Shown here piece after piece: positions 3,316 to 51,097 of a DNA stretch of 64,000 nucleotides. The stretch is from Candidatus Nomurabacteria bacterium (GTDB lineage: Bacteria > Patescibacteriota > Minisyncoccia > Phycocordibacterales > UBA9973). Positions within the stretch are counted from its first letter, which is position 1. The number at the start of each line of letters is the position of its first letter. Location of the stretch: assembly GCA_026395955.1 (NCBI GenBank), contig JAPLXR010000006.1, positions 87,259-151,258 of the forward strand, in the 5' to 3' direction. Under the pieces are notes generated by a model, which worked only from the letters and a program-made list of their open reading frames with translations, had not been told where the DNA came from and ran no database searches. A program made the translations under genes and the position numbers.

Positions 3316-4680
3316 ATGACTCAAAATGAAGCGCTAAATATTTTAAAAACCGGTGCGTGTGTTTTTCTAACTGGTGAACCAGGAGCAGGAAAGACGCATA
3401 CAATAAATGCTTTCGTTTCGTATTTACGTGAACACGACATCGAGCCAGCGATTACAGCGAGTACTGGTATTGCTGCCACACATATCGGCGGGATGACGAT
3501 ACATTCATGGAGTGGAATAGGAATAAAAGAAACTTTATCTGCACAAGAGCTCGATAAAATAGCGAGTAGTGAATATGTAAATAGACGAATACGAAAAACA
3601 AAAGTTTTAATTATTGATGAGATTTCAATGCTTCGTGCAGATACACTCGATATGGTAGATGCAGTGTGTAGAGAAATAAAACAAAATTCTGAACCATTCG
3701 GAGGAATCCAAGTCATACTCGTCGGAGATTTTTTTCAGCTTCCACCGATTTTCAAAAGAGAAGTTGCAACAAAGCAAAATGCACTACTTTCTGCAAAAAA
3801 GGCGCATTTTGCTTTTGAATCAAATGCATGGAGAAGACTAAAACCAATCGTGTGTTATATCACAGAACAACACCGTCAGGATGATAGTAGCTTTTTAGAA
3901 TTACTTTCTGCTATTCGCACAGACACAGTTGAAGAAGAACATTATGAATATATGAAAGAGCGTTTTATCGAGAAAACAGAAATCCCAGAAAATACAACGA
4001 AATTATATTCTCACAATTTAGATGTCGATAAAGTAAATGACATGATGCTCGAAAAAATAACTGATGAAGAAAGTTTTCCATTTATTATGGACAGCGAAGG
4101 CAATGAAGCCCTCGTCACAATGCTGAAAAAAGGTTGTTTATCTCCAGAAGTTTTAAATTTGAAACGCGGAGCGGTAGTAATGTGTACAAAAAATAATCAA
4201 AAAGAACATTTTGTAAATGGAACTCTCGGTATCGTAGAAGAATTTGATTCTATCTCCGGGAATCCGATTATCAAAACTCGAAGTGGAAAGAAGATAGAGA
4301 TTTCTCCGATGGAATGGGTTGTAGAAGAAAATGGAAAGGTGAAAGCGATGATTTCGCAAGTCCCTCTTCGTCTCGCTTGGGCTGTGACTATTCACAAAAG
4401 CCAGGGTATGAGTATGGATGCAGCTGTTATGGACCTCTCAAATGTTTTTGAATTTGGGCAGGGCTATGTAGCTCTTTCTCGTGTGCGAAGATTATCCGGT
4501 CTATATCTTCTCGGTATGAATCATCAAGCACTAAAAGTGCATCCACAGATTCTAGAGCAAGATAAAATATTCCGAACAGAGTCAGATTCTGCTGAAATAA
4601 CCTTTGGAAAATTAACAAAAACTGAGCTAAATAAAATGCATAAAAATTTTGTTATCGCTTTGGATGGGGAGTGGAAATAA
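3316..4680 (+). CDS. PIF1/RecD-family ATP-dependent DNA helicase (AAA_30 + UvrD_C_2-like)
   Basis: Walker A GEPGAGKTH, VLIIDEISM (Walker B), GDFFQLPP. C-terminal region has LRLAWAVTIHKSQG and GQGYVALSRV motifs typical of PIF1/RecD. Confidence 0.75.
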   Translation: MTQNEALNILKTGACVFLTGEPGAGKTHTINAFVSYLREHDIEPAITASTGIAATHIGGMTIHSWSGIGIKETLSAQELDKIASSEYVNRRIRKTKVLIIDEISMLRADTLDMVDAVCREIKQNSEPFGGIQVILVGDFFQLPPIFKREVATKQNALLSAKKAHFAFESNAWRRLKPIVCYITEQHRQDDSSFLELLSAIRTDTVEEEHYEYMKERFIEKTEIPENTTKLYSHNLDVDKVNDMMLEKITDEESFPFIMDSEGNEALVTMLKKGCLSPEVLNLKRGAVVMCTKNNQKEHFVNGTLGIVEEFDSISGNPIIKTRSGKKIEISPMEWVVEENGKVKAMISQVPLRLAWAVTIHKSQGMSMDAAVMDLSNVFEFGQGYVALSRVRRLSGLYLLGMNHQALKVHPQILEQDKIFRTESDSAEITFGKLTKTELNKMHKNFVIALDGEWK

Positions 4681-11521: not shown

Positions 11522-14500
11522 ATGAAAAAAATATTTAGTATTGTTTTAGTTTTAATAGTTGTATTTGGGAATATTCCATTTACAAATTTTGGTACACAAA
11601 AAGTTTTAGCAGATGGATTTCAAGGTACAGGAGATGGTAGTGAGGGGAATCCATTTATAATTACAAATTGTACTTTACTCCAAGAAATAAACTTAGATTT
11701 GGATTTGTATTTTAAATTACAAGGTGCAAATAATACTATAGATTGTTCTGAAACATCTAATTGGAATTCAGATGGTGATGGAGGGTATTATGGATTTCAA
11801 CCACTTGGTTCTGTTAACTCTCCATTTTTTACAGGACATTTAAATGGAAATAATAACACTATTACTAATTTGTATATCAATAGACCTTCATCAACTTTTG
11901 TTGGGCTATTTTCTGTAGTTGATTCTGGTGCTACTATTAGTGATTTAACTTTAAAGGATGTAAATATAACTGGAAACGATCGTACTGGTGCTCTTGTGGG
12001 TTCTCTGAGTGGTACTGTTACAAATGTCCATGCTTCAGGTGTGCTTACAGGAGGTTTTACTACTGGAGGTCTTGTCGGTGCTCATGTGAATAATAATAGT
12101 TGGTATAACTCTAGTCCTTTAGTTTATACTTGGGATGGAAATAAATATAAATATATAGCCGATGTTGGTAATTTATTACCAAAAGAAGTTTTAAATGCTC
12201 CAGATTTGGCTACTGTAGACACTGGCGATTTAGTTCCAAAAGATGGAAAATATTCAATGAAAATTGCAGAAGAATATAATGAAATTGTTTACTATGATAA
12301 ACTCACTTTGAATACTTATGATCATGCACCAGGATATAGTATTGCAGTTCCATTAAACAGAAATGCTGTAGCTAGTGATATAAAAACAGTCAGTGATACA
12401 CCGACAAATCCATTACTTTCTTGTACAGATATGTATGGAAATAATTGTGAAGATACACTCAAGGCAAACGATGACAAATGGGCAGTGCAAGATAAAAGTT
12501 TTGTAAATTCATATATTATGGATTTTGGAGATTTATCAAACAAAGACAGTATACAACTGGTAATGCGTGGTGCTCGTGATTATGATGCTGCTGCAAAGAT
12601 GAGAGCTGCTGGAAATTATCAATCTCTACGCACTGTTCAAGTCAAAGACACAAATGGTAACTGGGTAGAAATTTATAATAAAAATGACTTAGGTTCTGAC
12701 GGTACACCTAGACTTCGAACTATCGACCTTACTGGAAAATTCTTGAGTAATGATTATCATATTAAGGTTGGTTTCGATACAATGTACATGAATTATTTTG
12801 CTGTTGATACATCTGCACAAGTCCCTGTCACAGTGCATACTTATGCTCCAACAAAAGCTGATCTTAGTTTTAGAGGTTTTACTAAGATAAATCATAATCC
12901 GTATGTTGATCATGATTACAATACTGTAACAGTAAATCCTGAAGGAATGTTTAAACCTCAATTTGGTAATTTCACAAAATACGGTGATGTATCTCCATTA
13001 CTTCAAACTTCAAACAATCAATTCGTAATTATGAAAGGAGGTGATCATATGGATATAGAATTCCCATATGTCGCACCCGCCGATGGAATGGTGAGAAGTT
13101 TTGTTTTAGATAATGATGCTTGGTATAAACATGCTTCAAATGAAGGTATTGATTTGCTTGGTAAGACAGTTAGTCCACTTCCATATCAAGGTATGACTTC
13201 ATATACAGCGAATACAAGTGGTTATCCGATGACTGATGAAAATACTAATTATTTAAATACTTGGAATACTCGTGTCTATGCAGGTACACCAAAACATGAT
13301 GTTACAAATGGTAGTACAATTATTAATTCTTCTTCTAGTGTTAATGTTACTACTAATAATAATAGTTACGTAGGAGGACTTGTTGGTTATAATGAAAAAG
13401 AAATTAGAAATTCTTTTGCTACAGGAGATGTAACTGCCAATGGTAATTCTTACAATATTGGAGGATTAGTAGGATTTAATGGAACTGCTGGATCTACTGG
13501 ATGGATACATGATTCTTATGCGACAGGTTCTGTAACAAATATAAATGGTTACGATGTAGGAGGTTTAGTTGGTATTAACCTTGCAAAAATTGAAAGAAGT
13601 TATGCTGCTGGGCTTGTTACATCAAATAATGTTGATTATGCTCATGGACTAATAGGTGATAACTGTGGTGGTGGTTGTAGCACAGAAGTGAATGATTCAT
13701 TTTGGGACACACAAACATCTCAAAAAGAAACTGACGCATCAGGTTCTAATGCTACAGGAAAAAGTTCATCTGAAATGAAAGACATTGCAACATTTACAAA
13801 TGCTAGTACTACAGGACTTACTAATGCTTGGGATTTTACTGGTACATTAAATAATGATGCAGGTACAGATGATATTTGGAAAATAGATGCAAATCAGAAC
13901 AATGGTTATCCATATTTGTATTGGCAAACACCAGCTCCAGTTTTGACTGAAGTGAAACCAATTCCAGCAAAAGTCACAGCAAGTAAGGCAAAATATTATT
14001 TTACAACAGATAAGGCTTGTACTTTACAAGTAAGTGCAGTCGAAACAGACAAGGAAGGTGAAGTTACAGTTCATGTTTCAGGAGAACCTACTCCTGGTGA
14101 GGATTCTAATTTTTATCTAACTGGTTTAAAGACAGGTGGAACATATTCGTTTAATTTTCAATGTATAGATGAAAATGATAGTATTTCAAATACTTTAAAT
14201 GTAGGACCATTTAAAGTTATTTCTAATATTACTTCTTCTGGATATTATTCTCCAGGTAGTGTTCCATCCTTTATTCAATCATCAACCACTCCTGTACAAT
14301 CAACATCACAAGTAAGTACAAATCCAGAGCAAAAAAATATAACAATCTCTGAAATCCAAAAAGTTGTGAAAGATTTAAAATTTGGAATGAAAGACGCTGA
14401 TGTAAAAATACTTCAATCATTCTTAATCTCACAAGACAAAGGAGAAAATGCAAAAGCATTAGCAAAACACGGAACAACTATAAACTTTGGGAAATTAACA

Positions 14501-14602
14501 CAAAAATCTTTAGCAGAATGGCAAAAAGCTAATAATGTTTCTCCTGCAGTTGGTATCTTTGGTCCTATAACTCGTGCAAAGATAAAAGATTTAAATTTAT
14601 AA
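11522..14602 (+). CDS. giant secreted surface protein with GLUG-motif repeats and an intact C-terminal peptidoglycan-binding (PG_binding_1-like) domain
   Basis: Signal peptide; repeated GGLVG segments (YVGGLVGYN, IGGLVGFNG, VGGLVGINL) typical of GLUG repeats. C-terminus reads DVKILQSFLI...FGKLTQKSLAEWQKANNVSPAVGIFGPITRAKI. Shares the SSGGY-PG-PSFIQS linker with the upstream paralog. Confidence 0.7.
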   Translation: MKKIFSIVLVLIVVFGNIPFTNFGTQKVLADGFQGTGDGSEGNPFIITNCTLLQEINLDLDLYFKLQGANNTIDCSETSNWNSDGDGGYYGFQPLGSVNSPFFTGHLNGNNNTITNLYINRPSSTFVGLFSVVDSGATISDLTLKDVNITGNDRTGALVGSLSGTVTNVHASGVLTGGFTTGGLVGAHVNNNSWYNSSPLVYTWDGNKYKYIADVGNLLPKEVLNAPDLATVDTGDLVPKDGKYSMKIAEEYNEIVYYDKLTLNTYDHAPGYSIAVPLNRNAVASDIKTVSDTPTNPLLSCTDMYGNNCEDTLKANDDKWAVQDKSFVNSYIMDFGDLSNKDSIQLVMRGARDYDAAAKMRAAGNYQSLRTVQVKDTNGNWVEIYNKNDLGSDGTPRLRTIDLTGKFLSNDYHIKVGFDTMYMNYFAVDTSAQVPVTVHTYAPTKADLSFRGFTKINHNPYVDHDYNTVTVNPEGMFKPQFGNFTKYGDVSPLLQTSNNQFVIMKGGDHMDIEFPYVAPADGMVRSFVLDNDAWYKHASNEGIDLLGKTVSPLPYQGMTSYTANTSGYPMTDENTNYLNTWNTRVYAGTPKHDVTNGSTIINSSSSVNVTTNNNSYVGGLVGYNEKEIRNSFATGDVTANGNSYNIGGLVGFNGTAGSTGWIHDSYATGSVTNINGYDVGGLVGINLAKIERSYAAGLVTSNNVDYAHGLIGDNCGGGCSTEVNDSFWDTQTSQKETDASGSNATGKSSSEMKDIATFTNASTTGLTNAWDFTGTLNNDAGTDDIWKIDANQNNGYPYLYWQTPAPVLTEVKPIPAKVTASKAKYYFTTDKACTLQVSAVETDKEGEVTVHVSGEPTPGEDSNFYLTGLKTGGTYSFNFQCIDENDSISNTLNVGPFKVISNITSSGYYSPGSVPSFIQSSTTPVQSTSQVSTNPEQKNITISEIQKVVKDLKFGMKDADVKILQSFLISQDKGENAKALAKHGTTINFGKLTQKSLAEWQKANNVSPAVGIFGPITRAKIKDLNL

Positions 14603-16090: not shown

Positions 16091-16117
16091 GACTTGTCGA
16101 CCTGCTAGGTCGACAAG
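16091..16117. terminator. strong palindromic hairpin (cttgtcgacc-tgct-aggtcgacaag) after msrA; weak T tract
   Basis: 10-bp perfect stem; downstream T-run is poor. Confidence 0.4.
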
Positions 16118-16141
16118 AAATAGTTATCCACAGGTATTTAC

Positions 16142-16170
16142 TTGCGTGTGAACGTTCGTTCACTTATAAT
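16142..16170 (+). promoter_or_regulatory. sigma-70-like promoter (TTGCGT-17 bp-TATAAT) whose spacer is a Cheo-type LexA/SOS box tGAACgttcGTTCa (core 16150-16161)
   Basis: GAAC-N4-GTTC inverted repeat at 16150-16161, TATAAT at 16165-16170, TTGCGT at 16142-16147. Sits 30 bp upstream of the small ORF that precedes lexA. Confidence 0.6.
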
Positions 16171-16200
16171 GAGTGTATTAGAAATAATATATAAAAATTT

Positions 16201-16410
16201 ATGAGTAAAGAACAATATTTAAAAATCATCAATAAGGAATTGCAAAAGGTTAACAAGAAGATCGACGTGAAGATTATCAGAGGTGAAGAATATTTCCGCG
16301 AAGCACGTGAACACAAGTTGCTTCTCAGAAAGGCTCGTCAATTTCAAGGTCAAAGTTTTTTTAGTAAAATATTTGGAGGATTGTTTTCTTCCAACTTGTC
16401 CTTTCGTTAA
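16201..16410 (+). CDS. hypothetical 69-aa protein co-transcribed with lexA (SOS-box regulated)
   Basis: ORF between the LexA-box promoter and lexA; no recognisable motif. Confidence 0.35.
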   Translation: MSKEQYLKIINKELQKVNKKIDVKIIRGEEYFREAREHKLLLRKARQFQGQSFFSKIFGGLFSSNLSFR

Positions 16411-16457
16411 AAAATCAAAGAGCGAGAGTAAAGATAAAAACGTGATACAATAAATCT

Positions 16458-17027
16458 ATGCAAAACGATTACAAAGACAAACTAAATAGTTTCTATTCAA
16501 AGAACAAAAGAATGCCGACATACACAGAAATGATGAAGCTGTTTTCTTTCAAGTCCAAGAATGCCGTAGCCCGAGTCGTCGATAAAATGATCGAAGCCGG
16601 ACTCGTCGCCAAGGATCACCTTGGTCGTTTAATTCCCGATAAATTTTTAAATGAAGTAGTAATGCTCGGTTCTGTGAAAGCCGGATTTCCGAGCGATGTC
16701 GAGGAACAAACTTTTAATGATACAGTAAACCTCGATGATTTTTTAATAGAGAAAAAAGATTCCACATATATGCTCGAAGTTGATGGTGATTCTATGATCG
16801 ATGCACATATTAAAAATGGTGATATGGTTTTAGCTGAACGTACAAATAAAGCCAAAGATGGCGACATTGTGATAGCCGAAGTGGATGGGGAATTCACAAT
16901 GAAATATTTTAAACAAAAGGGTGACAAAGTTTGGCTCGAGCCAGCCAACAAAAATTTTAAACCTATTTATCCTAAATATGATTTAAAGGTGACAGCGATA
17001 GTCAAAGCCGTAATTCGTAAATATTAG
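16458..17027 (+). CDS. lexA: LexA-like transcriptional repressor (S24 peptidase family)
   Basis: N-terminal winged HTH; C-terminal S24 autopeptidase motifs VDGDSMIDAHIKNGDMVL and ...KDGDIVIAEVDGEFTMKYF (Ser/Lys dyad region). Confidence 0.85.
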   Translation: MQNDYKDKLNSFYSKNKRMPTYTEMMKLFSFKSKNAVARVVDKMIEAGLVAKDHLGRLIPDKFLNEVVMLGSVKAGFPSDVEEQTFNDTVNLDDFLIEKKDSTYMLEVDGDSMIDAHIKNGDMVLAERTNKAKDGDIVIAEVDGEFTMKYFKQKGDKVWLEPANKNFKPIYPKYDLKVTAIVKAVIRKY

Positions 17028-27681: not shown

Positions 27682-30150
27682 ATGGCTAAAAAATTACCAC
27701 CAATTGAAACACCTGTGCGCACAAATATGGACGATGGAATTATTCCGATAAATATCGTTTCAGAAATGAAAGAATCATATCTCGCTTATGCGATGTCTGT
27801 TATTACTTCTCGTGCTCTTCCTGATGTGCGTGATGGATTGAAACCAGTTCATCGTCGTATTTTATTCGCGATGAATGAAATGGGGCTTACTTCTTCTTCA
27901 CGTTTTCGTAAATCAGCTGCAGTAGTCGGAGATGTACTTGGAAAATATCATCCACATGGCGATGCTTCTGTTTATGATGCTATGGTAAACATGGCCCAAG
28001 ACTTTTCTTATCGTTACCCTTTGATTATTGGTCAAGGAAACTTTGGTTCTATCGATGGAGATAATGCTGCTGCAATGCGTTATACCGAAGCTAAAATGGC
28101 AAAAGTTTCAAATGAATTACTTCGTGATTTAGAAAAAGAAACAGTTGATTTTAGATCAAACTATGACCAGACTCGAAAAGAGCCTGTAGTTTTTCCTTCT
28201 GCTGTACCTAGTCTTTTATTGAATGGAACTCTTGGTATTGCTGTTGGTATGGCGACAAATATTCCTTCACACAATCTCGCTGAAGTTGTAGATGCAACAG
28301 TACACCTCATAGATAACGAAGACGCAACTACAGAAGACCTGATGCAATTTGTTAAGGGTCCAGATTTTCCGACTGGTGGTCTCGTATATGGTCAAAAAGA
28401 CATGTTGCATGCCTATTCCACAGGACGTGGGGGTGTAGTAACTCGTGGTGAAGCTGAAATAGTTGAACAAAAAGGCGGACAATTCCAAATCATAATTACT
28501 TCTATTCCATTTCGTGTAAACAAGGCAAATTTGATAATGTCTATAGCTGAACTTGTACAAGAAAAAAAGATAGAAGGTATAAAAGGTCTTCGTGATGAAT
28601 CTACAAAAGATATTCGTATTGTTATAGATTTGAAAGCTGGAGCATATCCAGAAAAAGTATTGAATTATATTTACAAAAATACTCAGCTCGAACAAAATTT
28701 TAATTTCAACATGGTAGCCCTCGTAGATGGTGTACCACAAACCTTATCATTAAAATCAATTCTTTCAGAATTTATTGGCCACAGAAAAGAAGTGGTAAAA
28801 AGACGTTCACTTTATGAACTTCGTAAAGCAGAAGAACGTGAACATATTTTACTTGGTTTGAAAAAAGCTCTCGATTTTATTGATAAAGTTATCAAAACTA
28901 TTCGTGCATCAAAAGATGGAGCTACAGCAAAGCTCGCATTGATGAAAGAATTCAAATTCTCTGATCTTCAGGCTCAAGCTATTTTGGATATGAAATTGCA
29001 AAAGCTTGCAGGCCTCGAAAGAAAACTCATCGAAGAAGAACTGAAAGAGAAACAAGCTTTCATAAAAGCTATAAAAGAATTGCTCGCAAGTCCAAAGAAA
29101 ATGTTGAAAGTTGTTTCTGATGAACTCAAAGAAATTCGTGAGAAATATGCTGATGATCGTAGAACAAAAATAATAAAAGGTGGAGTGAAAGAAATTTCAG
29201 AAGATGATCTCGTTCCAGAAAAAGATACAATGCTCGTCTTTACTGCTGGCGGTTATGTAAAGCGTACTGACCCATCTGAATATCATTCACAAAAGCGTGG
29301 AGGTGTCGGTGTTGTAGACCTCGAAACAAAAGAAGAAGATTTCGTAACTATGCTTGTTTCGGGTTCTACACATAGTGATCTATTATTCTTCACAAATCTC
29401 GGAAAAGCATATCAAATAAAAATGTACGACATACCAGAAGGTCGCCGTGCTACAAAAGGAAAATCAATTATGAATTTCTTGTCTTTGGCAGGTGATGAAA
29501 AAGTAATGGCTATTTTACCAATGCCAAAAGAACTAAAGAAAAATCCTATTTCACTTATGCTTGTAACAAAAGTTGGTACTGCAAAGAAAATGGCTGGGGA
29601 AGCGTTCAAGGATGTTCGCCGTAGTGGACTTATTGCTATCAAACTCGACAAGGGCGATGAACTCGCTTCAGCACTTATTACAGAAAAGGGTGATGAAGTA
29701 ATGCTCGCAACTTCTGAAGGTCAATCAATCAGATTCAAAGAATCAGACATACGTGAAATGGGACGTACAGCAGGAGGTGTACGCGGAATGAAGCTCGATA
29801 AAGGGGATAGTATCATCGGTGTAGATGTTATAAAGAAAGAAAATAAAGACGGTTCATTCCTAGTAATGTCTGCAAATGGACTTGGCAAGAAAACATCACT
29901 CAAAGAATATAAAGTACAAAACCGTGGAGGATCTGGAATCAAAACTGCAAAAGTAACTCCAAAGACAGGTAAACTAATCGTTGCAAAAGTTATCACAGGT
30001 AATGAAGAAGAACTGATCGCTATGTCTAAAAAGGGACAAGTAATTCGTACAGCGCTAAAAGATATTCCATCTCTAGGCCGTCAAACACAAGGCGTAACAA
30101 TCATGCGTCTCCGTGCTGGAGATGGTATCGCATCTCTAACTTGTGCTTAA
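27682..30150 (+). CDS. gyrA: DNA gyrase subunit A
   Basis: [25 protein letters not shown] and [14 protein letters not shown] (QRDR region), a C-terminal beta-pinwheel, and a GyrA-box-like QNRGGSG. 822 aa. Confidence 0.9.
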
Positions 30151-32492: not shown

Positions 32493-34088
32493 ATGAAAAT
32501 ATTTAAACAAAACTTTTTAATGAAAATAGCTCTAGTAGTATTTTTGTTTTTGATATCTTTTGGATTTTCAAAAAATGTTTTTGCTGCTACATTAGTAGCT
32601 ACTAATATAACACCAACCTCTGTTGCTGTTGGCGGTGGAGGATTTACTCCTGGTGTTTCTTATCAGATTACTATATCTGATACATTAGGTATAGTTAATC
32701 ATACATTCGTTACTGCTTGTTCAACTCTTTCTACTTCCTGTACTACCTTGGGTACTTTTGGGGTTAGTTTTACTAACTTGACTCAACATCATAATTATGA
32801 TTTAATGGCAACTCTTCAGTCAAATGGAACTCCCGTTGGAAGTCTTATTAGTTTTACTACAGCGACAGCTCCAACAACTGTAACCCTAACAGCAACACCT
32901 TCGACTCTTGCATCAGGACAATCAACAACATTATCTTGGACAGCGACAAATGTTACCGGTAGTTGTATCGCTGCTAGTAATCCAAATATTATAGCTGTGT
33001 GGGATAATCCACATAAAGCACTTTCCGGGACACAATTAGTTTCAGTTGTAGCTTCTAATAATTTTTCTCTTTCTTGTACTGATGCGTCAGGTAATTTTGC
33101 AGGACAAGCAAATGCTTTTGTTACTGTAACAGGAGCAGGTTCTGGTGCTACTGCTGCTCCTATTGGTACACCTCCACCTGGTACTTTTCCATCAACTACG
33201 CCTGTAACACTTTCTAGCTCTACTAGTGGTGCAACAATTAGATATGTTATAGATGCTTCTACTCCTACATGTACCTTAGGTTCTACTACGAATCCTATGA
33301 GTGTTAGTACTACAACAACAATAAAAGCTATTGCTTGCGATCCCCATGGAGTTGCTTCTACTATTTCTTCTTTAACTTATACAATTAATTCCTCTAGTGG
33401 GGGAACACCACCACCTCCTACTGGTGGTCCTACTACAAATGGATCTATGGTAGCTAATGATCCTACTTCAACTATGGTTACATTAGATGCGACAGGTCTT
33501 TCTAATACAGGAAGCTATCTTTTTGCTGTTTACAATAATACTGGAACACCATCATATTATCAAACGAGAATTCCTGCAACAACAGATGGAACTGACGGAG
33601 AATCACCCTTCCCAGGTTTATCTCCTAGTGGTTCATATACTGCTTATTTAATAGATCAAAATACCTCTAATAATGCTGTTCCTTCTATTACATTTTCAAC
33701 TTTAGCTACAGACCCCCTTATAATAGGTGCTGGATCCGGTAGTGGTGTAGCTTCTACTACACCTGCGTCAAATCTATCAAACCCAGCTGGTGGTTTAGTT
33801 CCAGCATGTACTAATGCAAGAGGTTGTCAGTGGGCAGATTTAATGTCTTTGGTAAATAAAGTTGTTAAATTTATTCTTTTTGATCTAGGAATTCCTATAG
33901 CAGCTATTATGTTTATGTATGCTGGTTTTTTGCTTGTTACATCTGGTGGAAATCCTGGAGATCTTACAAAAGCAAAAGGTATATTTACTTCTGTTCTGAT
34001 AGGTCTTGTTATTTCAGCTGCCGCTTGGCTTATTATAAATATAATACTGACTACTTTAGGTTTTGTTGGTGATAGACTTGGGTTTTAA
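32493..34088 (+). CDS. large Thr/Ser/Pro-rich secreted surface protein with a C-terminal two-helix pilin-like module (CTNARGC...IGIPIAAIMFMYAGFLLV...AKGIFTSVLIGLVISAAAWLIINIIL)
   Basis: Signal peptide, long low-complexity T/S/P/G region, and the last ~90 aa paralogous to the five downstream small proteins, closest to 34112-34480. Confidence 0.55.
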   Translation: MKIFKQNFLMKIALVVFLFLISFGFSKNVFAATLVATNITPTSVAVGGGGFTPGVSYQITISDTLGIVNHTFVTACSTLSTSCTTLGTFGVSFTNLTQHHNYDLMATLQSNGTPVGSLISFTTATAPTTVTLTATPSTLASGQSTTLSWTATNVTGSCIAASNPNIIAVWDNPHKALSGTQLVSVVASNNFSLSCTDASGNFAGQANAFVTVTGAGSGATAAPIGTPPPGTFPSTTPVTLSSSTSGATIRYVIDASTPTCTLGSTTNPMSVSTTTTIKAIACDPHGVASTISSLTYTINSSSGGTPPPPTGGPTTNGSMVANDPTSTMVTLDATGLSNTGSYLFAVYNNTGTPSYYQTRIPATTDGTDGESPFPGLSPSGSYTAYLIDQNTSNNAVPSITFSTLATDPLIIGAGSGSGVASTTPASNLSNPAGGLVPACTNARGCQWADLMSLVNKVVKFILFDLGIPIAAIMFMYAGFLLVTSGGNPGDLTKAKGIFTSVLIGLVISAAAWLIINIILTTLGFVGDRLGF

Positions 34089-46170: not shown

Positions 46171-48582
46171 TTAATTTATACTAAAATTAAGATCTGAAAA
46201 GTCAGAAACTGACGGTGCGTTAGCATCAAACATAGTAATCTTATATTCATTTATTCCAGCAGAAAGACCAGCTAAGCTGGTAGTAAAACTACCCGTATTT
46301 GTTGTAACGAAATAAATAGAGTTACCACTCATTACATTCTCTATAAAGATCCCTATTGGTGCAGAAACAGGAATCAGTGAAGATGTCCAAGATATAGTGA
46401 TTGTTTGACCTACACTAAAATATTCTCCTCCATTTGGAAAATCAACATGTATAGCAGCACCCGCTGGTATTTGATAAACAAGACCACCATTACTGTACGA
46501 ATTAGTATTACCGAGGCTAGATTGATCTTCAACAACAAAATTCACTCCAAAAATGCCACCAATAATATAGTTACCATACTGCAAAGACGCTCCAGCGCTA
46601 ATAGTAGTAGAAAAATTTTGTGATTGACCTGGAGCAAGCGTAAATTGTTGGGTTGTATTTATGGTTATGGTTACTGCATTTGATCCTGCTGAAAGCCGAT
46701 TCAGTGTTATGGTCGAAGGAAGAGTAAAGGTTGATGTAGAGCATATTGAGCTATCTGTGTTAGTAATAGTCGCATTTACTACTAACGGACCGTTGCTTAA
46801 ATCAATAGAGGAAACAGGAAAACTTGGAATATTTAATGTCGGGTGTCCTGAACTACAAACAGCAAGGCTTGGATTAGGTGCACTAATAGAAACAACAGCG
46901 TGAATAGAATCTGTAGATATCGTGGTAATAGTGCGTCCTGTTGCTCGGTCAATATATGAGTGCCCTACAGTAAGTGGCGCATCATTTAAAGTATTTGTAT
47001 TTGGCATAGTGTCAATAAGATTATTATCATAACGTAAAGAAACACCATTCATCACTGGATCAGTTGAAGAGTATGTATCCCGAACACCGTAAGGTCTCCT
47101 GTACTCGAGTGTAAAATATGCACTATTACCTGTATTATCTTGTGTCGGGAAACGAAGTGCTTTTTGAAAAATTGCCTGAGGGTACAGGGGAAATTGTCCC
47201 CACTGAGTAGGACCAAGAGTAGTTATATCGGTCGGCAATATATTTCCAATTACACCTAATTTTAATTTTTCAAACACACTAAAAAGTAGTTTTGGATCCC
47301 ATCCATTACCCATGACTGAAAAAGGATCTCCATATTCTATGTGAGTACAATGCCCACCGTCAAAAAACGAATACGCTTCAGGCGCACCAGAAGCATCAAC
47401 ACAATTTTGTGAATTTGCATGCATTAGATCAAGTGAATGTCCCATTTCATGAATAATTGCTGAAGAACTAGTAGTGTATAAAACTGCACGAGGTCCGTAT
47501 GTACTTATTCCATAAAAACCACCAACAGGACAACTAACAGAAGGTGCAACGAGAACGACTACATCGTACCCATTCGGATCAAATCCATTTTGCATGGCCA
47601 TAGCTTCTGCTTCATTAGCCCAATTATTTTGAGATGTAGGATACGTACAACCAGCGCTGCCATGAGGCAAAGTATAATATCCATATACATCATTAGTACC
47701 ATCAACACTATTTTTGCCAACTAATTTTATCACTCCATAGGAAGCTGTCCTATAAAAACCAGCGATACTATTTATATTATTCGGTTCGTTGTCATACATA
47801 TATTCTCGTGCAGTACTTATCGGGTAAGCTGCAACAGCAGTACTTGCATTATCTTGGAAATTAAAAAGTATTGTGGCAATTTTATATTCTCCTGCATTTG
47901 CTCCAGTGGTTTGAAGACTTTTTTGTTGATTTGATTTAGCAGATGAAGCAAATATTTTATTCACTGAAAGTATTTTACCTTTCAGTGTTCCGATAATAAC
48001 AACTTGCTTACGGTTTAATGGATTTTCGTCAGTAAGTTGTTCTTTGTCAGAAGAAGTTAAATTTAAACTAGTGCCGTCTGATAGTAACAATTGAGCTACT
48101 GGTATTTCTTTACTGAGAGTTCCATTTTTGCCAAAAATGTCACCATGCGAAAGATTTAAAATACCGCTATATTCTTTTTCAGAATTTTTTGTTGATACAA
48201 TAGCCGAGGTTTTAGAATCAACTTTTTGCATAACTGCTTTTGTAGTGACTTCCGCTGTTTTTGTATTTGTCTTAGTAGTTGCATCTTTCGTCGCGGCAGT
48301 TAACGATTTTACTGCACCACTTGAAGCAGTAGTGCTCTTTGTAAGCATAGTAGTAGCTTTTGTATCTGTTGTTAAGGAAAGACCTTTGGTACCAGTCTGA
48401 CTGAGTAACTTCATAATTGTATCTTTTTGTTCTTGAGTTAGAGGCGTAGAAGTAGTACTCGTTACGCTGTTTACTACAGTTGCAGTATTATCTGTCGGTG
48501 GGACATTGAAACCGAGCTTTGCAACAATGATAACCAAGACAACGGCTCCGATAAATAGCCCAAACTGTAAATATTTTTTCAT
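46171..48582 (-). CDS. large secreted metzincin-like zinc metallopeptidase (HEMGHSLDLMH plus an SVM Met-turn), T/S-rich N-terminal stalk, beta-rich C-terminal domains
   Basis: Signal peptide; HExxHxxDxxH with H at positions 1, 5 and 11; downstream FSVMG Met-turn. 803 aa. Confidence 0.6.
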   Translation of the reverse strand: MKKYLQFGLFIGAVVLVIIVAKLGFNVPPTDNTATVVNSVTSTTSTPLTQEQKDTIMKLLSQTGTKGLSLTTDTKATTMLTKSTTASSGAVKSLTAATKDATTKTNTKTAEVTTKAVMQKVDSKTSAIVSTKNSEKEYSGILNLSHGDIFGKNGTLSKEIPVAQLLLSDGTSLNLTSSDKEQLTDENPLNRKQVVIIGTLKGKILSVNKIFASSAKSNQQKSLQTTGANAGEYKIATILFNFQDNASTAVAAYPISTAREYMYDNEPNNINSIAGFYRTASYGVIKLVGKNSVDGTNDVYGYYTLPHGSAGCTYPTSQNNWANEAEAMAMQNGFDPNGYDVVVLVAPSVSCPVGGFYGISTYGPRAVLYTTSSSAIIHEMGHSLDLMHANSQNCVDASGAPEAYSFFDGGHCTHIEYGDPFSVMGNGWDPKLLFSVFEKLKLGVIGNILPTDITTLGPTQWGQFPLYPQAIFQKALRFPTQDNTGNSAYFTLEYRRPYGVRDTYSSTDPVMNGVSLRYDNNLIDTMPNTNTLNDAPLTVGHSYIDRATGRTITTISTDSIHAVVSISAPNPSLAVCSSGHPTLNIPSFPVSSIDLSNGPLVVNATITNTDSSICSTSTFTLPSTITLNRLSAGSNAVTITINTTQQFTLAPGQSQNFSTTISAGASLQYGNYIIGGIFGVNFVVEDQSSLGNTNSYSNGGLVYQIPAGAAIHVDFPNGGEYFSVGQTITISWTSSLIPVSAPIGIFIENVMSGNSIYFVTTNTGSFTTSLAGLSAGINEYKITMFDANAPSVSDFSDLNFSIN

Positions 48583-49714: not shown

Positions 49715-51097
49715 ATGTCAGTAAGAACTAAAAAGCAAAAAACATTTGTCTTAGACACAAATGTCATTCTTCGTGATTTTAAAAGCATCTTTAGCTTTAA
49801 AGAGCACGATATTGTTATTCACATTGCAGTAATTAAAGAATTAGAAAACTTTAAAAAGGGTAATGAAATGAAAAATGTAAATGCTAGAGAGTTTGCACGT
49901 TTTGCGAGCAAGCTTCCAGCAAAAGCATTCGACAAGGGTGCAATTCTTGGTAAGGGTTTGGGTAAAATAAGAATTGTTGTTCGTCAGGAATTTCATAAAG
50001 ATGTTGAAATTCTTTTTCCTGAAAAAACTGTCGATGACATTATCATTAATGCTGCTTATGTAGAAAACAAAGAAAAGAAAAATGCTAAAAGGGAAATAGT
50101 ATTAGTGTCTCAAGATATGTATATGTGCACTAAAGCGAAATCTTTAGGTATAAAAACTGAAGGTTACAAAACTGATTCTATTTCAGATGAAAGCATATTA
50201 ACAAAAGGTGTTCAAACTATTAAATTGAATGCTGAGCTTAGTACTATTCTTTTTTCTAAAGGCAAATTAGATTTTCTTACAGATCCTTTAATAAAAGGTA
50301 AAACTTTTTTTAAAAATGAGTTTCTTATATTGAAATTATCAAATAATAAGGAGGAATCTGGTACTCGTTTGGCTGTTTACAAAAAAGAAGAAGATAAAGA
50401 AGGAAAGGTTATTAAAAATGAAATTATCGCTTTTAATAAAAAAGAAGTAACTTCTTTTGGAATAGAACCAAAAAATTCAGAACAAGCTTTTGCTTTGTAT
50501 GCTTTGTTAGATCCAAGTGTTAAAATTGTTTCTATGAACGGAAAGGCTGGTTCTGGTAAAACATTTCTATCAATAGCTGCTGCTTTGGAAAAACATGAAG
50601 CTTATGATCATATTTTTTATACTCGACATGTTATTCCTGTTGGAGGTAAGGAAATAGGATTTTTGCCTGGTGATATATCCGATAAGGTAAATGTGTACAT
50701 GGAGGCATTGTATGATAATTTGGGTGTTATTAAAACAGTTTCAAAAAAACAAAATGCTATTAGTGTAATTGATAAATTGCAGAAAGATGAAAAAATAAAA
50801 ATTCAAGTGGTGAATTTTATGAGAGGTAGAACATTACCTAACAGATTTTTCATAATAGATGAAGCTCAAAATTTAACTCCTCAGGTTATAAAAACAATAA
50901 TTTCGAGAGCAGGTGAAGGTGCAAAATTTATTTTGATTGGAGATACTGATCAGATAGATGATCCTTATTTAGACAAGAAATCAAATGGTTTAAGTCATTT
51001 GATCGATAGATTTATGGGACAAGGCATTTATGCTCATATAAATTTTATAAAAGGAGAGCGTTCTGAGTTAGCAACTTTAGCTGGTAATCTATTGTAG
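49715..51097 (+). CDS. PhoH2-type protein: N-terminal PIN domain fused to a PhoH-like ATPase
   Basis: N-terminal FVLDTNVIL...(PIN acidic residues); C-terminal GKAGSGKTFLS Walker A and FIIDEAQN Walker B of PhoH. Confidence 0.85.
   Translation: MSVRTKKQKTFVLDTNVILRDFKSIFSFKEHDIVIHIAVIKELENFKKGNEMKNVNAREFARFASKLPAKAFDKGAILGKGLGKIRIVVRQEFHKDVEILFPEKTVDDIIINAAYVENKEKKNAKREIVLVSQDMYMCTKAKSLGIKTEGYKTDSISDESILTKGVQTIKLNAELSTILFSKGKLDFLTDPLIKGKTFFKNEFLILKLSNNKEESGTRLAVYKKEEDKEGKVIKNEIIAFNKKEVTSFGIEPKNSEQAFALYALLDPSVKIVSMNGKAGSGKTFLSIAAALEKHEAYDHIFYTRHVIPVGGKEIGFLPGDISDKVNVYMEALYDNLGVIKTVSKKQNAISVIDKLQKDEKIKIQVVNFMRGRTLPNRFFIIDEAQNLTPQVIKTIISRAGEGAKFILIGDTDQIDDPYLDKKSNGLSHLIDRFMGQGIYAHINFIKGERSELATLAGNLL

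Follow-up and report, generated by a model that had tools for sequence, protein, structure and literature searches.

The locus examined here raises the question of whether a LexA repressor controls its own gene in a bacterium of the Patescibacteria, and of what is made from the small gene that precedes lexA under the same promoter. We analyzed 64,000 nucleotides of a Candidatus Nomurabacteria genome (assembly GCA_026395955.1, contig JAPLXR010000006.1, positions 87,259 to 151,258 of the forward strand; hereafter the window, numbered from its first base), in which a GAAC-N4-GTTC palindrome lies within a promoter upstream of a 69 amino acid (aa) open reading frame (ORF) and lexA. Judged from its sequence and from that of its relatives, this site is very probably the promoter through which lexA is autoregulated in a Patescibacteria (Nomurabacteria/Paceibacteria) genome, and the 69-aa gene would also be driven from it. 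LexA autoregulation appears to be the most economical reading of the locus and is strongly supported by the comparisons described below. The features on which this reading is built are the following.

16142-16147, forward strand: -35 hexamer TTGCGT, which abuts the operator and matches TTGACA at 3 of 6 positions

16148-16163, no strand assigned: predicted LexA operator, the palindrome GTGAAC-GTTC-GTTCAC, taking up 16 of the 17 spacer bases

16165-16170, forward strand: -10 hexamer TATAAT, one base past the operator

16201-16410, forward strand: first gene of the operon, for a 69-aa basic protein of an unnamed family, assessed by ratios of nonsynonymous to synonymous change (pN/pS) and by AlphaFold2

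16458-17027, forward strand: lexA, 189 aa, with a probable N-terminal winged-helix region, an Ala75-Gly76 cleavage site and a Ser112/Lys149 dyad

Direct reading of the sequence placed GTGAACGTTCGTTCAC inside acTTGCGT-GTGAACGTTCGTTCAC-t-TATAATgag at 16140-16173. The spacer from TTGCGT to TATAAT is exactly 17 bp (16148-16164), and the GAAC-N4-GTTC core, with 4 bp between the inverted GAAC and GTTC, covers 16150-16161. The ATG of the 69-aa ORF follows 30 nt past the -10 hexamer. The earlier note on this DNA had put the box exactly into the 17-bp TTGCGT/TATAAT spacer, 30 bp before the 69-aa ORF and then lexA, and each of these placements was borne out. A consensus promoter scan left this hexamer pair unlisted because TTGCGT agrees with TTGACA at only half of its positions. 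GAAC-N4-GTTC was counted once in the 64 kb window against an expectation of 0.57, and 39 of 100 shuffles contain it at least once; by count alone the single box is therefore not significant. Using a position matrix derived from the aligned sites described below, the window gave one match, at 29.1 of a maximum of 31.3 bits, while everything else reached at most 6 bits. No second promoter-placed box was found in the window with the position matrix or with scans allowing up to 4 mismatches. The nearest other box-like site, at 28795, carries 3 mismatches and lies within gyrA.

Conservation of the site was measured in a comparison set of 80 species-representative loci with LexA relatives of 54-99% identity, 75 of which had sufficient upstream DNA. 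GTG[A/T]AC-N4-GTTCAC was present 5' of lexA in 74 of these 75 Paceibacteria loci, within 700 bp in 73 of them and at 715 bp in locus L075. Seventy-three sites (72 loci and the window) were then aligned. At every one of the 73 a single base separates the box from the -10 hexamer, which is TATACT (56 sites), TATAAT (15), TACAAT (1) or TACACT (1), and the -35 position abutting the box is taken by TTGACA, TTGACT, TTGACG or TTGCAT, while the bases outside the promoter-operator vary. The box also carries an inner G in 70 and an inner C in 69 of the aligned sites, neither of which was imposed by the search pattern, and the resulting clade consensus is GTGAACG-N2-CGTTCAC. We judged the box to be significant because it is conserved upstream of lexA in a fixed register with the -10 hexamer. 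Outside lexA promoters, the 558 kb of flanking DNA hold 5 copies of the GAAC-N4-GTTC core, where 6.1 would be expected; its placement elsewhere in the flanks is chance-like, with no enrichment. The flanks differ from the canonical CGAAC...GTTCG, being GTGAACG...CGTTCAC at 69-73 of the 73 sites, and we describe GTGAACG-N2-CGTTCAC as a variant, in this lineage, of the Cheo box of Gram-positive bacteria.

The protein encoded by the downstream gene was evaluated against family profiles and solved structures. It scored 125.1 bits against the NCBIfam TIGR00498 lexA equivalog (cut-off 110.95), with residues 7-188 aligned, and matched Pfam Peptidase_S24 at 9.5e-29. Its closest solved relative was full-length Thermotoga LexA (3k2z, 2.1e-20), and its motifs VKA75-G76FP, GDS112M and MK149YF align with the matching stretches of that protein. 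Pfam gave no LexA_DNA_bind match at E <= 0.01, although the alignments to TIGR00498 and to 3k2z take in residues 7-70. The nearest LexA relatives in the databases carry the names Nomurabacteria, Vogelbacteria, Paceibacteria or 'Patescibacteria group', and the nearest genome locus (L001), with a LexA identity of 99%, comes from a Candidatus Nomurabacteria metagenome-assembled genome. We take the downstream gene to encode a bona fide LexA.

The 69-aa ORF can be considered a real gene under purifying selection. Its pN/pS was 0.02-0.16 in 15 pairwise comparisons, and residues M1, N18, I21, D22, I25, Y31 and H38 are invariant in 28 diverse members of the family. The small ORF was found in 72 of the Paceibacteria loci compared, and when the search was started from two homologues of the small protein an S24 gene came next in 3 of 3 places. 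The gap from the small ORF to lexA is 47 nt in the window; across loci the stop codon and the lexA ATG are a median of 12 nt apart, with a separation of at most 30 nt in 60 of 73 and an 8-nt overlap in five. The genes around the pair (msrAB, engB) are not conserved. We considered engB as a conserved operon member and rejected it, as engB stands after lexA in the closest relatives only. By these comparisons the conserved unit is the promoter-operator, the small gene and lexA.

The same box was also found at other genes. In locus L076 a second copy of the promoter, TTGACG-GTGAACTATAGTTCAC-C-TATACT, precedes a gene for a 191-aa LexA paralogue and a gene for a 435-aa polymerase of the IMS family (Y-family), and in locus L170 the box-promoter precedes a 193-aa LexA-like gene and a 437-aa IMS/Y-family polymerase. 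The polymerase gene follows or overlaps the LexA-like gene in these cassettes (L076:1780-3709 and L170:370-2302), and the small ORF is absent from both. Error-prone polymerases are core SOS genes of Gram-positive regulons (PMC7739468). Since the same box-promoter stands at cassettes of a LexA paralogue and a Y-family polymerase, it appears to behave as an SOS operator. The earlier note had named two things that would together speak against it, absence of the motif from other SOS genes and a LexA belonging to a clade with a different known operator; neither was encountered, and the polymerase cassettes share the motif. A scan of metagenome sequence with the 14 specified bases of the consensus gave 120 loci, 28 of which had the promoter architecture. 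In 21 of the 28 the promoter leads to the small ORF and lexA, in four to a lexA-like gene directly and in one to lexA past an unrelated 52-aa ORF; one more has the small ORF downstream, on a contig that is truncated, and the last shows no ORF before the contig ends. The loci that lack the architecture were unrelated, mostly high-GC chance matches. In three metagenome loci (L112, L158 and L176) the box leads straight to a LexA-like gene with no small ORF. Since the box stands before LexA-type genes that have no small ORF, it tracks LexA-type genes and not the small gene. Beyond the polymerase cassettes, no further regulon members turned up in the 14-base metagenome scan. The claim of LexA autoregulation of a two-gene operon, made in the earlier note, is thus supported by a TIGR00498-grade LexA, by the conserved box and by the reuse of the box at polymerase cassettes.

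The two cassettes, both with a promoter of the form TTGAC-box-TATA(C/A)T, resemble an umuDC-like mutagenesis cassette in which the S24 component retains a LexA-type N-terminal domain. The L076 cassette lies directly 5' of the small-ORF/lexA operon of that locus.

Two further elements border or interrupt the operon in the window.

16093-16117, no strand assigned: perfect hairpin with an 11-bp stem and a 3-nt loop, CTTGTCGACCT-agc-AGGTCGACAAG, directly 3' of msrA, a terminator-like site

16443-16451, forward strand: extended -10-like element TGaTACAAT, ending 6 nt before the lexA ATG

The hairpin is bordered on either side by T- and A-rich runs and stands between the upstream msrB-msrA genes and the lexA-operon promoter. 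It is likely a bidirectional terminator that shields this promoter from upstream transcription. The element at 16443-16451 is possibly a weak internal promoter, predicted to give a leaderless lexA message. An internal lexA promoter conserved across the loci was rejected: -10-like hexamers 4-14 nt before the ATG were found at 17 of 67 lexA genes and at 20% of other ORFs (p = 0.16). In loci L001-L080, about 20% of ORFs of at least 100 aa have a hexamer resembling TATAAT or TATACT whose end lies 4-14 nt 5' of the ATG, as compared with about 2% of random positions, and no Shine-Dalgarno sequence was visible before the small ORF, lexA or engB. The pattern of hexamers before the ATG and no Shine-Dalgarno suggests that leaderless or very-short-leader mRNAs may be widespread in this Paceibacteria lineage.

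The operon carries additional ORFs in some relatives. In L019 (3380-4000) a 91-aa ORF for a GIY-YIG nuclease (Pfam 6.3e-16) is located between the box-promoter and the small ORF; it would be transcribed from the LexA-controlled promoter and may be a mobile nuclease lodged in an SOS operon. In L058, L060, L061 and L070 the small gene and lexA lie about 215 bp apart, and the gap is filled by an additional ORF of 66-123 aa. By eye the tail of these ORFs (e.g. ARKGILARVFGNY) looks like the tail of the small protein. They were rejected as paralogues of the small protein, having no significant homology to it and no Pfam match.

The identification of the palindrome as a LexA operator was weighed against other explanations of the same site. 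Were the palindrome a chance match in AT-rich intergenic DNA (window G+C 30-36%) and the 69-aa ORF a non-coding leader, a single GAAC-N4-GTTC per 64 kb would be within expectation (0.57; 39 of 100 shuffles) and it would be no surprise that the ORF has no family match. The site and its -10 register are nevertheless kept in 74 of 75 loci while bases nearby vary, which rules out the chance match, and the pN/pS of 0.02-0.16 and the residues invariant across the family argue against a leader, so that we give this explanation almost no weight at all. A palindrome bound by a regulator other than LexA, for example by the basic small protein as autoregulator of its own operon, would suit a protein with an isoelectric point (pI) of 10.3 whose gene always adjoins the site. 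Against such a regulator, the identical box-promoter stands at LexA-type genes that have no small ORF (L076, L170, L158, L112 and L176), the small protein is predicted to fold as a plain hairpin in which no DNA-binding motif can be recognised, and the GAAC-N4-GTTC geometry is established for the LexA motifs of Firmicutes and Actinobacteria. We consider binding by another regulator very improbable.

Several observations count against an autoregulated lexA operon as proposed here. The -35 hexamer of the window itself is weak (3 of 6). Locus L036 alone of the 75 has no recognisable box, though the small ORF and lexA are present. No recA, uvrA, uvrB or dinB was found by Pfam among the 20 large ORFs of the window, and recA was not found in the fetched loci by tblastn with an approximate E. 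coli RecA query, nor were uvrA and similar genes available there. The small protein has no homology or significant structural match to characterised proteins in the databases searched. The element at 16443-16451 could allow some LexA-independent expression of lexA, and the two genes need not then be strictly co-expressed. L036 has long upstream sequence with a degenerate remnant, GTGTATAGTTATCCAC, 335 nt 5' of lexA (upstream of 4001), and may be a lineage that has lost LexA autoregulation.

From established LexA biology, an autoregulated lexA promoter of this design would be expected to work as follows. A LexA dimer would bind the 16-bp palindrome GTGAACGTTCGTTCAC, and because the palindrome occupies the spacer between the -35 and -10 hexamers, bound LexA would exclude RNA polymerase. 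Repression would hold down a bicistronic transcript encoding the 69-aa protein and then LexA. Upon DNA damage, RecA-stimulated self-cleavage of LexA (Ala75-Gly76, with Ser112/Lys149) would free the promoter, both gene products would rise together and fresh LexA would reset the system. LexA binding, repression by occlusion and induction by damage are in this way carried over by analogy.

That LexA regulates its own gene through a GAAC-N4-GTTC box is textbook knowledge. LexA (DinR) of Bacillus and Mycobacterium recognizes Cheo boxes of the form CGAAC-N4-GTTCG and TCGAAC-N4-GTTCGA, lexA autoregulation included. The site described here is like these systems in its inverted GAAC/GTTC with a 4-bp spacer in lexA's own promoter, in the occurrence of the motif at error-prone polymerase genes as well and in the Ser-Lys self-cleaving S24 domain of the repressor. 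It is unlike them in its flanks, which here, in a member of the Patescibacteria, are GT...AC with an inner G..C as compared to C/TC...G/GA. The B. subtilis lexA promoter has several LexA sites around it, whereas here one site in a rigid register fills the -35/-10 spacer. A 2017 study by Sanchez-Osuna, Barbe and Erill (Environ Microbiol 2017; 19:3465) is devoted to the SOS network of Patescibacteria. That study concerns the same superphylum, regulator and question, and presumably the same operator motif; it reportedly describes a Gram-positive-like motif with in vitro support. The statement in the earlier note that the box defines the SOS operator of the lineage is not new, having probably been anticipated in print. 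The regulatory logic is ordinary and little is gained from the operator as such; what is new is the lexA-linked small protein.

Relatives of the small protein were collected by several searches. A word-index search returned 10 and a profile search 234, all of them 'hypothetical' or without a name, and the named sources among the 234 are Nomurabacteria, Paceibacterota, Minisyncoccia or Patescibacteria group. An exhaustive profile search of 1.84 billion representatives returned 348 at E <= 0.001 (about 350 clusters at 50% identity), and the best 150 of the 348 are all 42-136 aa with no fusions to other domains. A profile search of the 69-aa protein, as proposed in the earlier note, assigned it to no known family: there was no match in Pfam (E <= 0.01), NCBIfam or PHROG, no SulA, DinI, RecX or LysM match in the Pfam and NCBIfam scans, and no PDB chain for a profile of 44 members even at E <= 10. 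Phage origin was ruled out, as neither the relatives nor the box-promoter were found in viral contigs.

AlphaFold2 with a 44-sequence alignment modeled the small protein as a helical hairpin (helices 3-27 and 32-49) with a predicted local distance difference test (pLDDT) score of 82, rising to about 98 at residues 11-40; the C-terminal helix after the hairpin is of low confidence. Foldseek against the PDB returned generic hairpins only, e.g. the seryl-tRNA synthetase arm, all at E > 1. The C-terminal tail is rich in Phe, Arg and Ser, and across the family Phe makes up 19.5% of the tails, Arg+Lys 16.5% and acidic residues 1%. The hydrophobic moment of the tail was weakly above that of shuffles (mean z 0.63); with so weak a signal an amphipathic membrane-targeting helix was not established and stays a suggestion. 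A transmembrane-grade stretch was found in none of 73 members, as no 19-residue Kyte-Doolittle window reached 1.6 (highest value 0.94, median of the per-protein maxima 0.03, window protein 0.53). The model and composition point to a soluble alpha-hairpin that is very basic and ends in a tail rich in Phe and Arg.

As for its role, we commit to the small protein being a predicted LexA-controlled gene product of the damage response. Its action is proposed more cautiously. Our leading, if tentative, proposal is that it serves as a damage-induced checkpoint effector on the cytoplasmic side, possibly acting through its tail at the membrane or the division machinery. Many small helical proteins block FtsZ or FtsZ partners. 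The Phe/Arg-rich tail could serve as a tag for the membrane, for a partner or for a protease.

The earlier note had compared the small protein to YneA/SulA-type effectors, and of this comparison co-location and co-regulation with lexA held up, while the hallmarks of the class did not: there is no transmembrane segment, LysM or SulA, and the gene is not divergent from lexA. YneA of B. subtilis, SosA of S. aureus, ChiZ of M. tuberculosis and DivS of C. glutamicum are small, fast-evolving, lineage-restricted, lexA-adjacent and LexA-controlled; they are single-pass membrane proteins, often with LysM, and divergent from lexA (PMC6851548). The small protein is like them in being small and lineage-specific and in having its gene next to lexA behind a LexA-type operator, and such synteny served to spot SosA and its kin (PMC6851548). 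In contrast, the transmembrane segment that defines the class was found in 0 of 73 members, Pfam found no LysM or SulA domain, and the small gene is co-directional with lexA instead of divergent and would be the first cistron of a shared lexA transcript. Membership of this family of lexA-adjacent SOS cell-division inhibitors is therefore highly unlikely; the protein would stand outside the class yet could act like such an inhibitor. Alternatively, the small protein may partner LexA or RecA and, as a modulator encoded by the host itself, tune operator binding or self-cleavage, in the manner of phage GIL01 gp7 with Bacillus LexA or of DinI and RecX with RecA. A partner of this kind would account for the message shared with LexA. 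The strict linkage upstream of lexA (median gap of 12 nt, five overlaps), which is typical of proteins made in a fixed ratio and holds when searching from either gene, fits such a partner, as does the absence of the small gene from the LexA-paralogue/polymerase cassettes. LexA is made in undamaged cells, and therefore the small gene upstream is presumably expressed at a basal level too, which fits a harmless partner better than a division blocker. Precedent is found in gp7, a small LexA-binding protein that acts as a LexA co-factor, boosting DNA binding and blocking RecA-mediated cleavage (PMC4551915). The small protein is like gp7 in being small and tied to a LexA of the GAAC-N4-GTTC type, and unlike it in being chromosomal, absent from viral contigs and without sequence similarity to any PDB entry. 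Speaking against a partner of LexA or RecA are this lack of PDB similarity at E <= 10, the lack of a Pfam DinI or RecX match and a fold that is a generic hairpin. Co-transcription does not discriminate either: in the lexA-sulA pair of Pseudomonas, an inhibitor is co-transcribed with lexA as effector from a LexA-repressed promoter. That SulA differs from the small protein in that its gene lies 3' of lexA and encodes an FtsZ-binding member of the SulA family of about 160 aa, whereas the small gene lies 5' and encodes 69 aa with no SulA domain. We regard a LexA or RecA partner as possible and rather doubtful, nearly as likely as the checkpoint effector, with the remaining probability left to some other role. 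Bolder still, and held with similar doubt, is the proposal that the small protein founds an unrecognised family, seen in Paceibacteria-type Patescibacteria only, that is an obligatory partner of LexA, either as a modulator of LexA or RecA or as a checkpoint protein that has no transmembrane segment.

Other genes of the window were inspected for the box. No box stands at gyrA, nor upstream of two genes whose products act on nucleic acids, a Pif1-like helicase (3316-4680) and a PIN-PhoH fusion protein (49715-51097). Of three large ORFs, the first (11522-14602) encodes a probable surface protein of 1026 aa and the second (32493-34088) a protein of 531 aa whose C terminus holds a type IV secretion pilin-like domain, while the 803-aa product of the third (46171-48582) has no Pfam match. 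They are a typical unexplored cell-surface inventory of an episymbiotic bacterium of the Candidate Phyla Radiation.

Together, these comparisons describe an unusually rigid promoter-operator design, maintained throughout a class of bacteria that are ultra-small and uncultivated, and the aligned sites yield a ready position matrix for predicting the regulon in Paceibacteria genomes. They also bring to light a conserved, strongly constrained, lexA-linked small protein that is without annotation and outside the known class of lexA-adjacent inhibitors. The small gene is retained in genomes of less than 1 Mb that have shed most regulators, which speaks for its importance in the response to damage, and its product is a concrete candidate that is cheap to test. 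If it proved to be a modulator of LexA or RecA, it would be a cellular counterpart of phage gp7; if it proved to be a checkpoint protein that has no transmembrane segment, its tail would target the membrane, the division machinery or a protease. In either role, no lineage-specific SOS component would have been defined before it in the Candidate Phyla Radiation.

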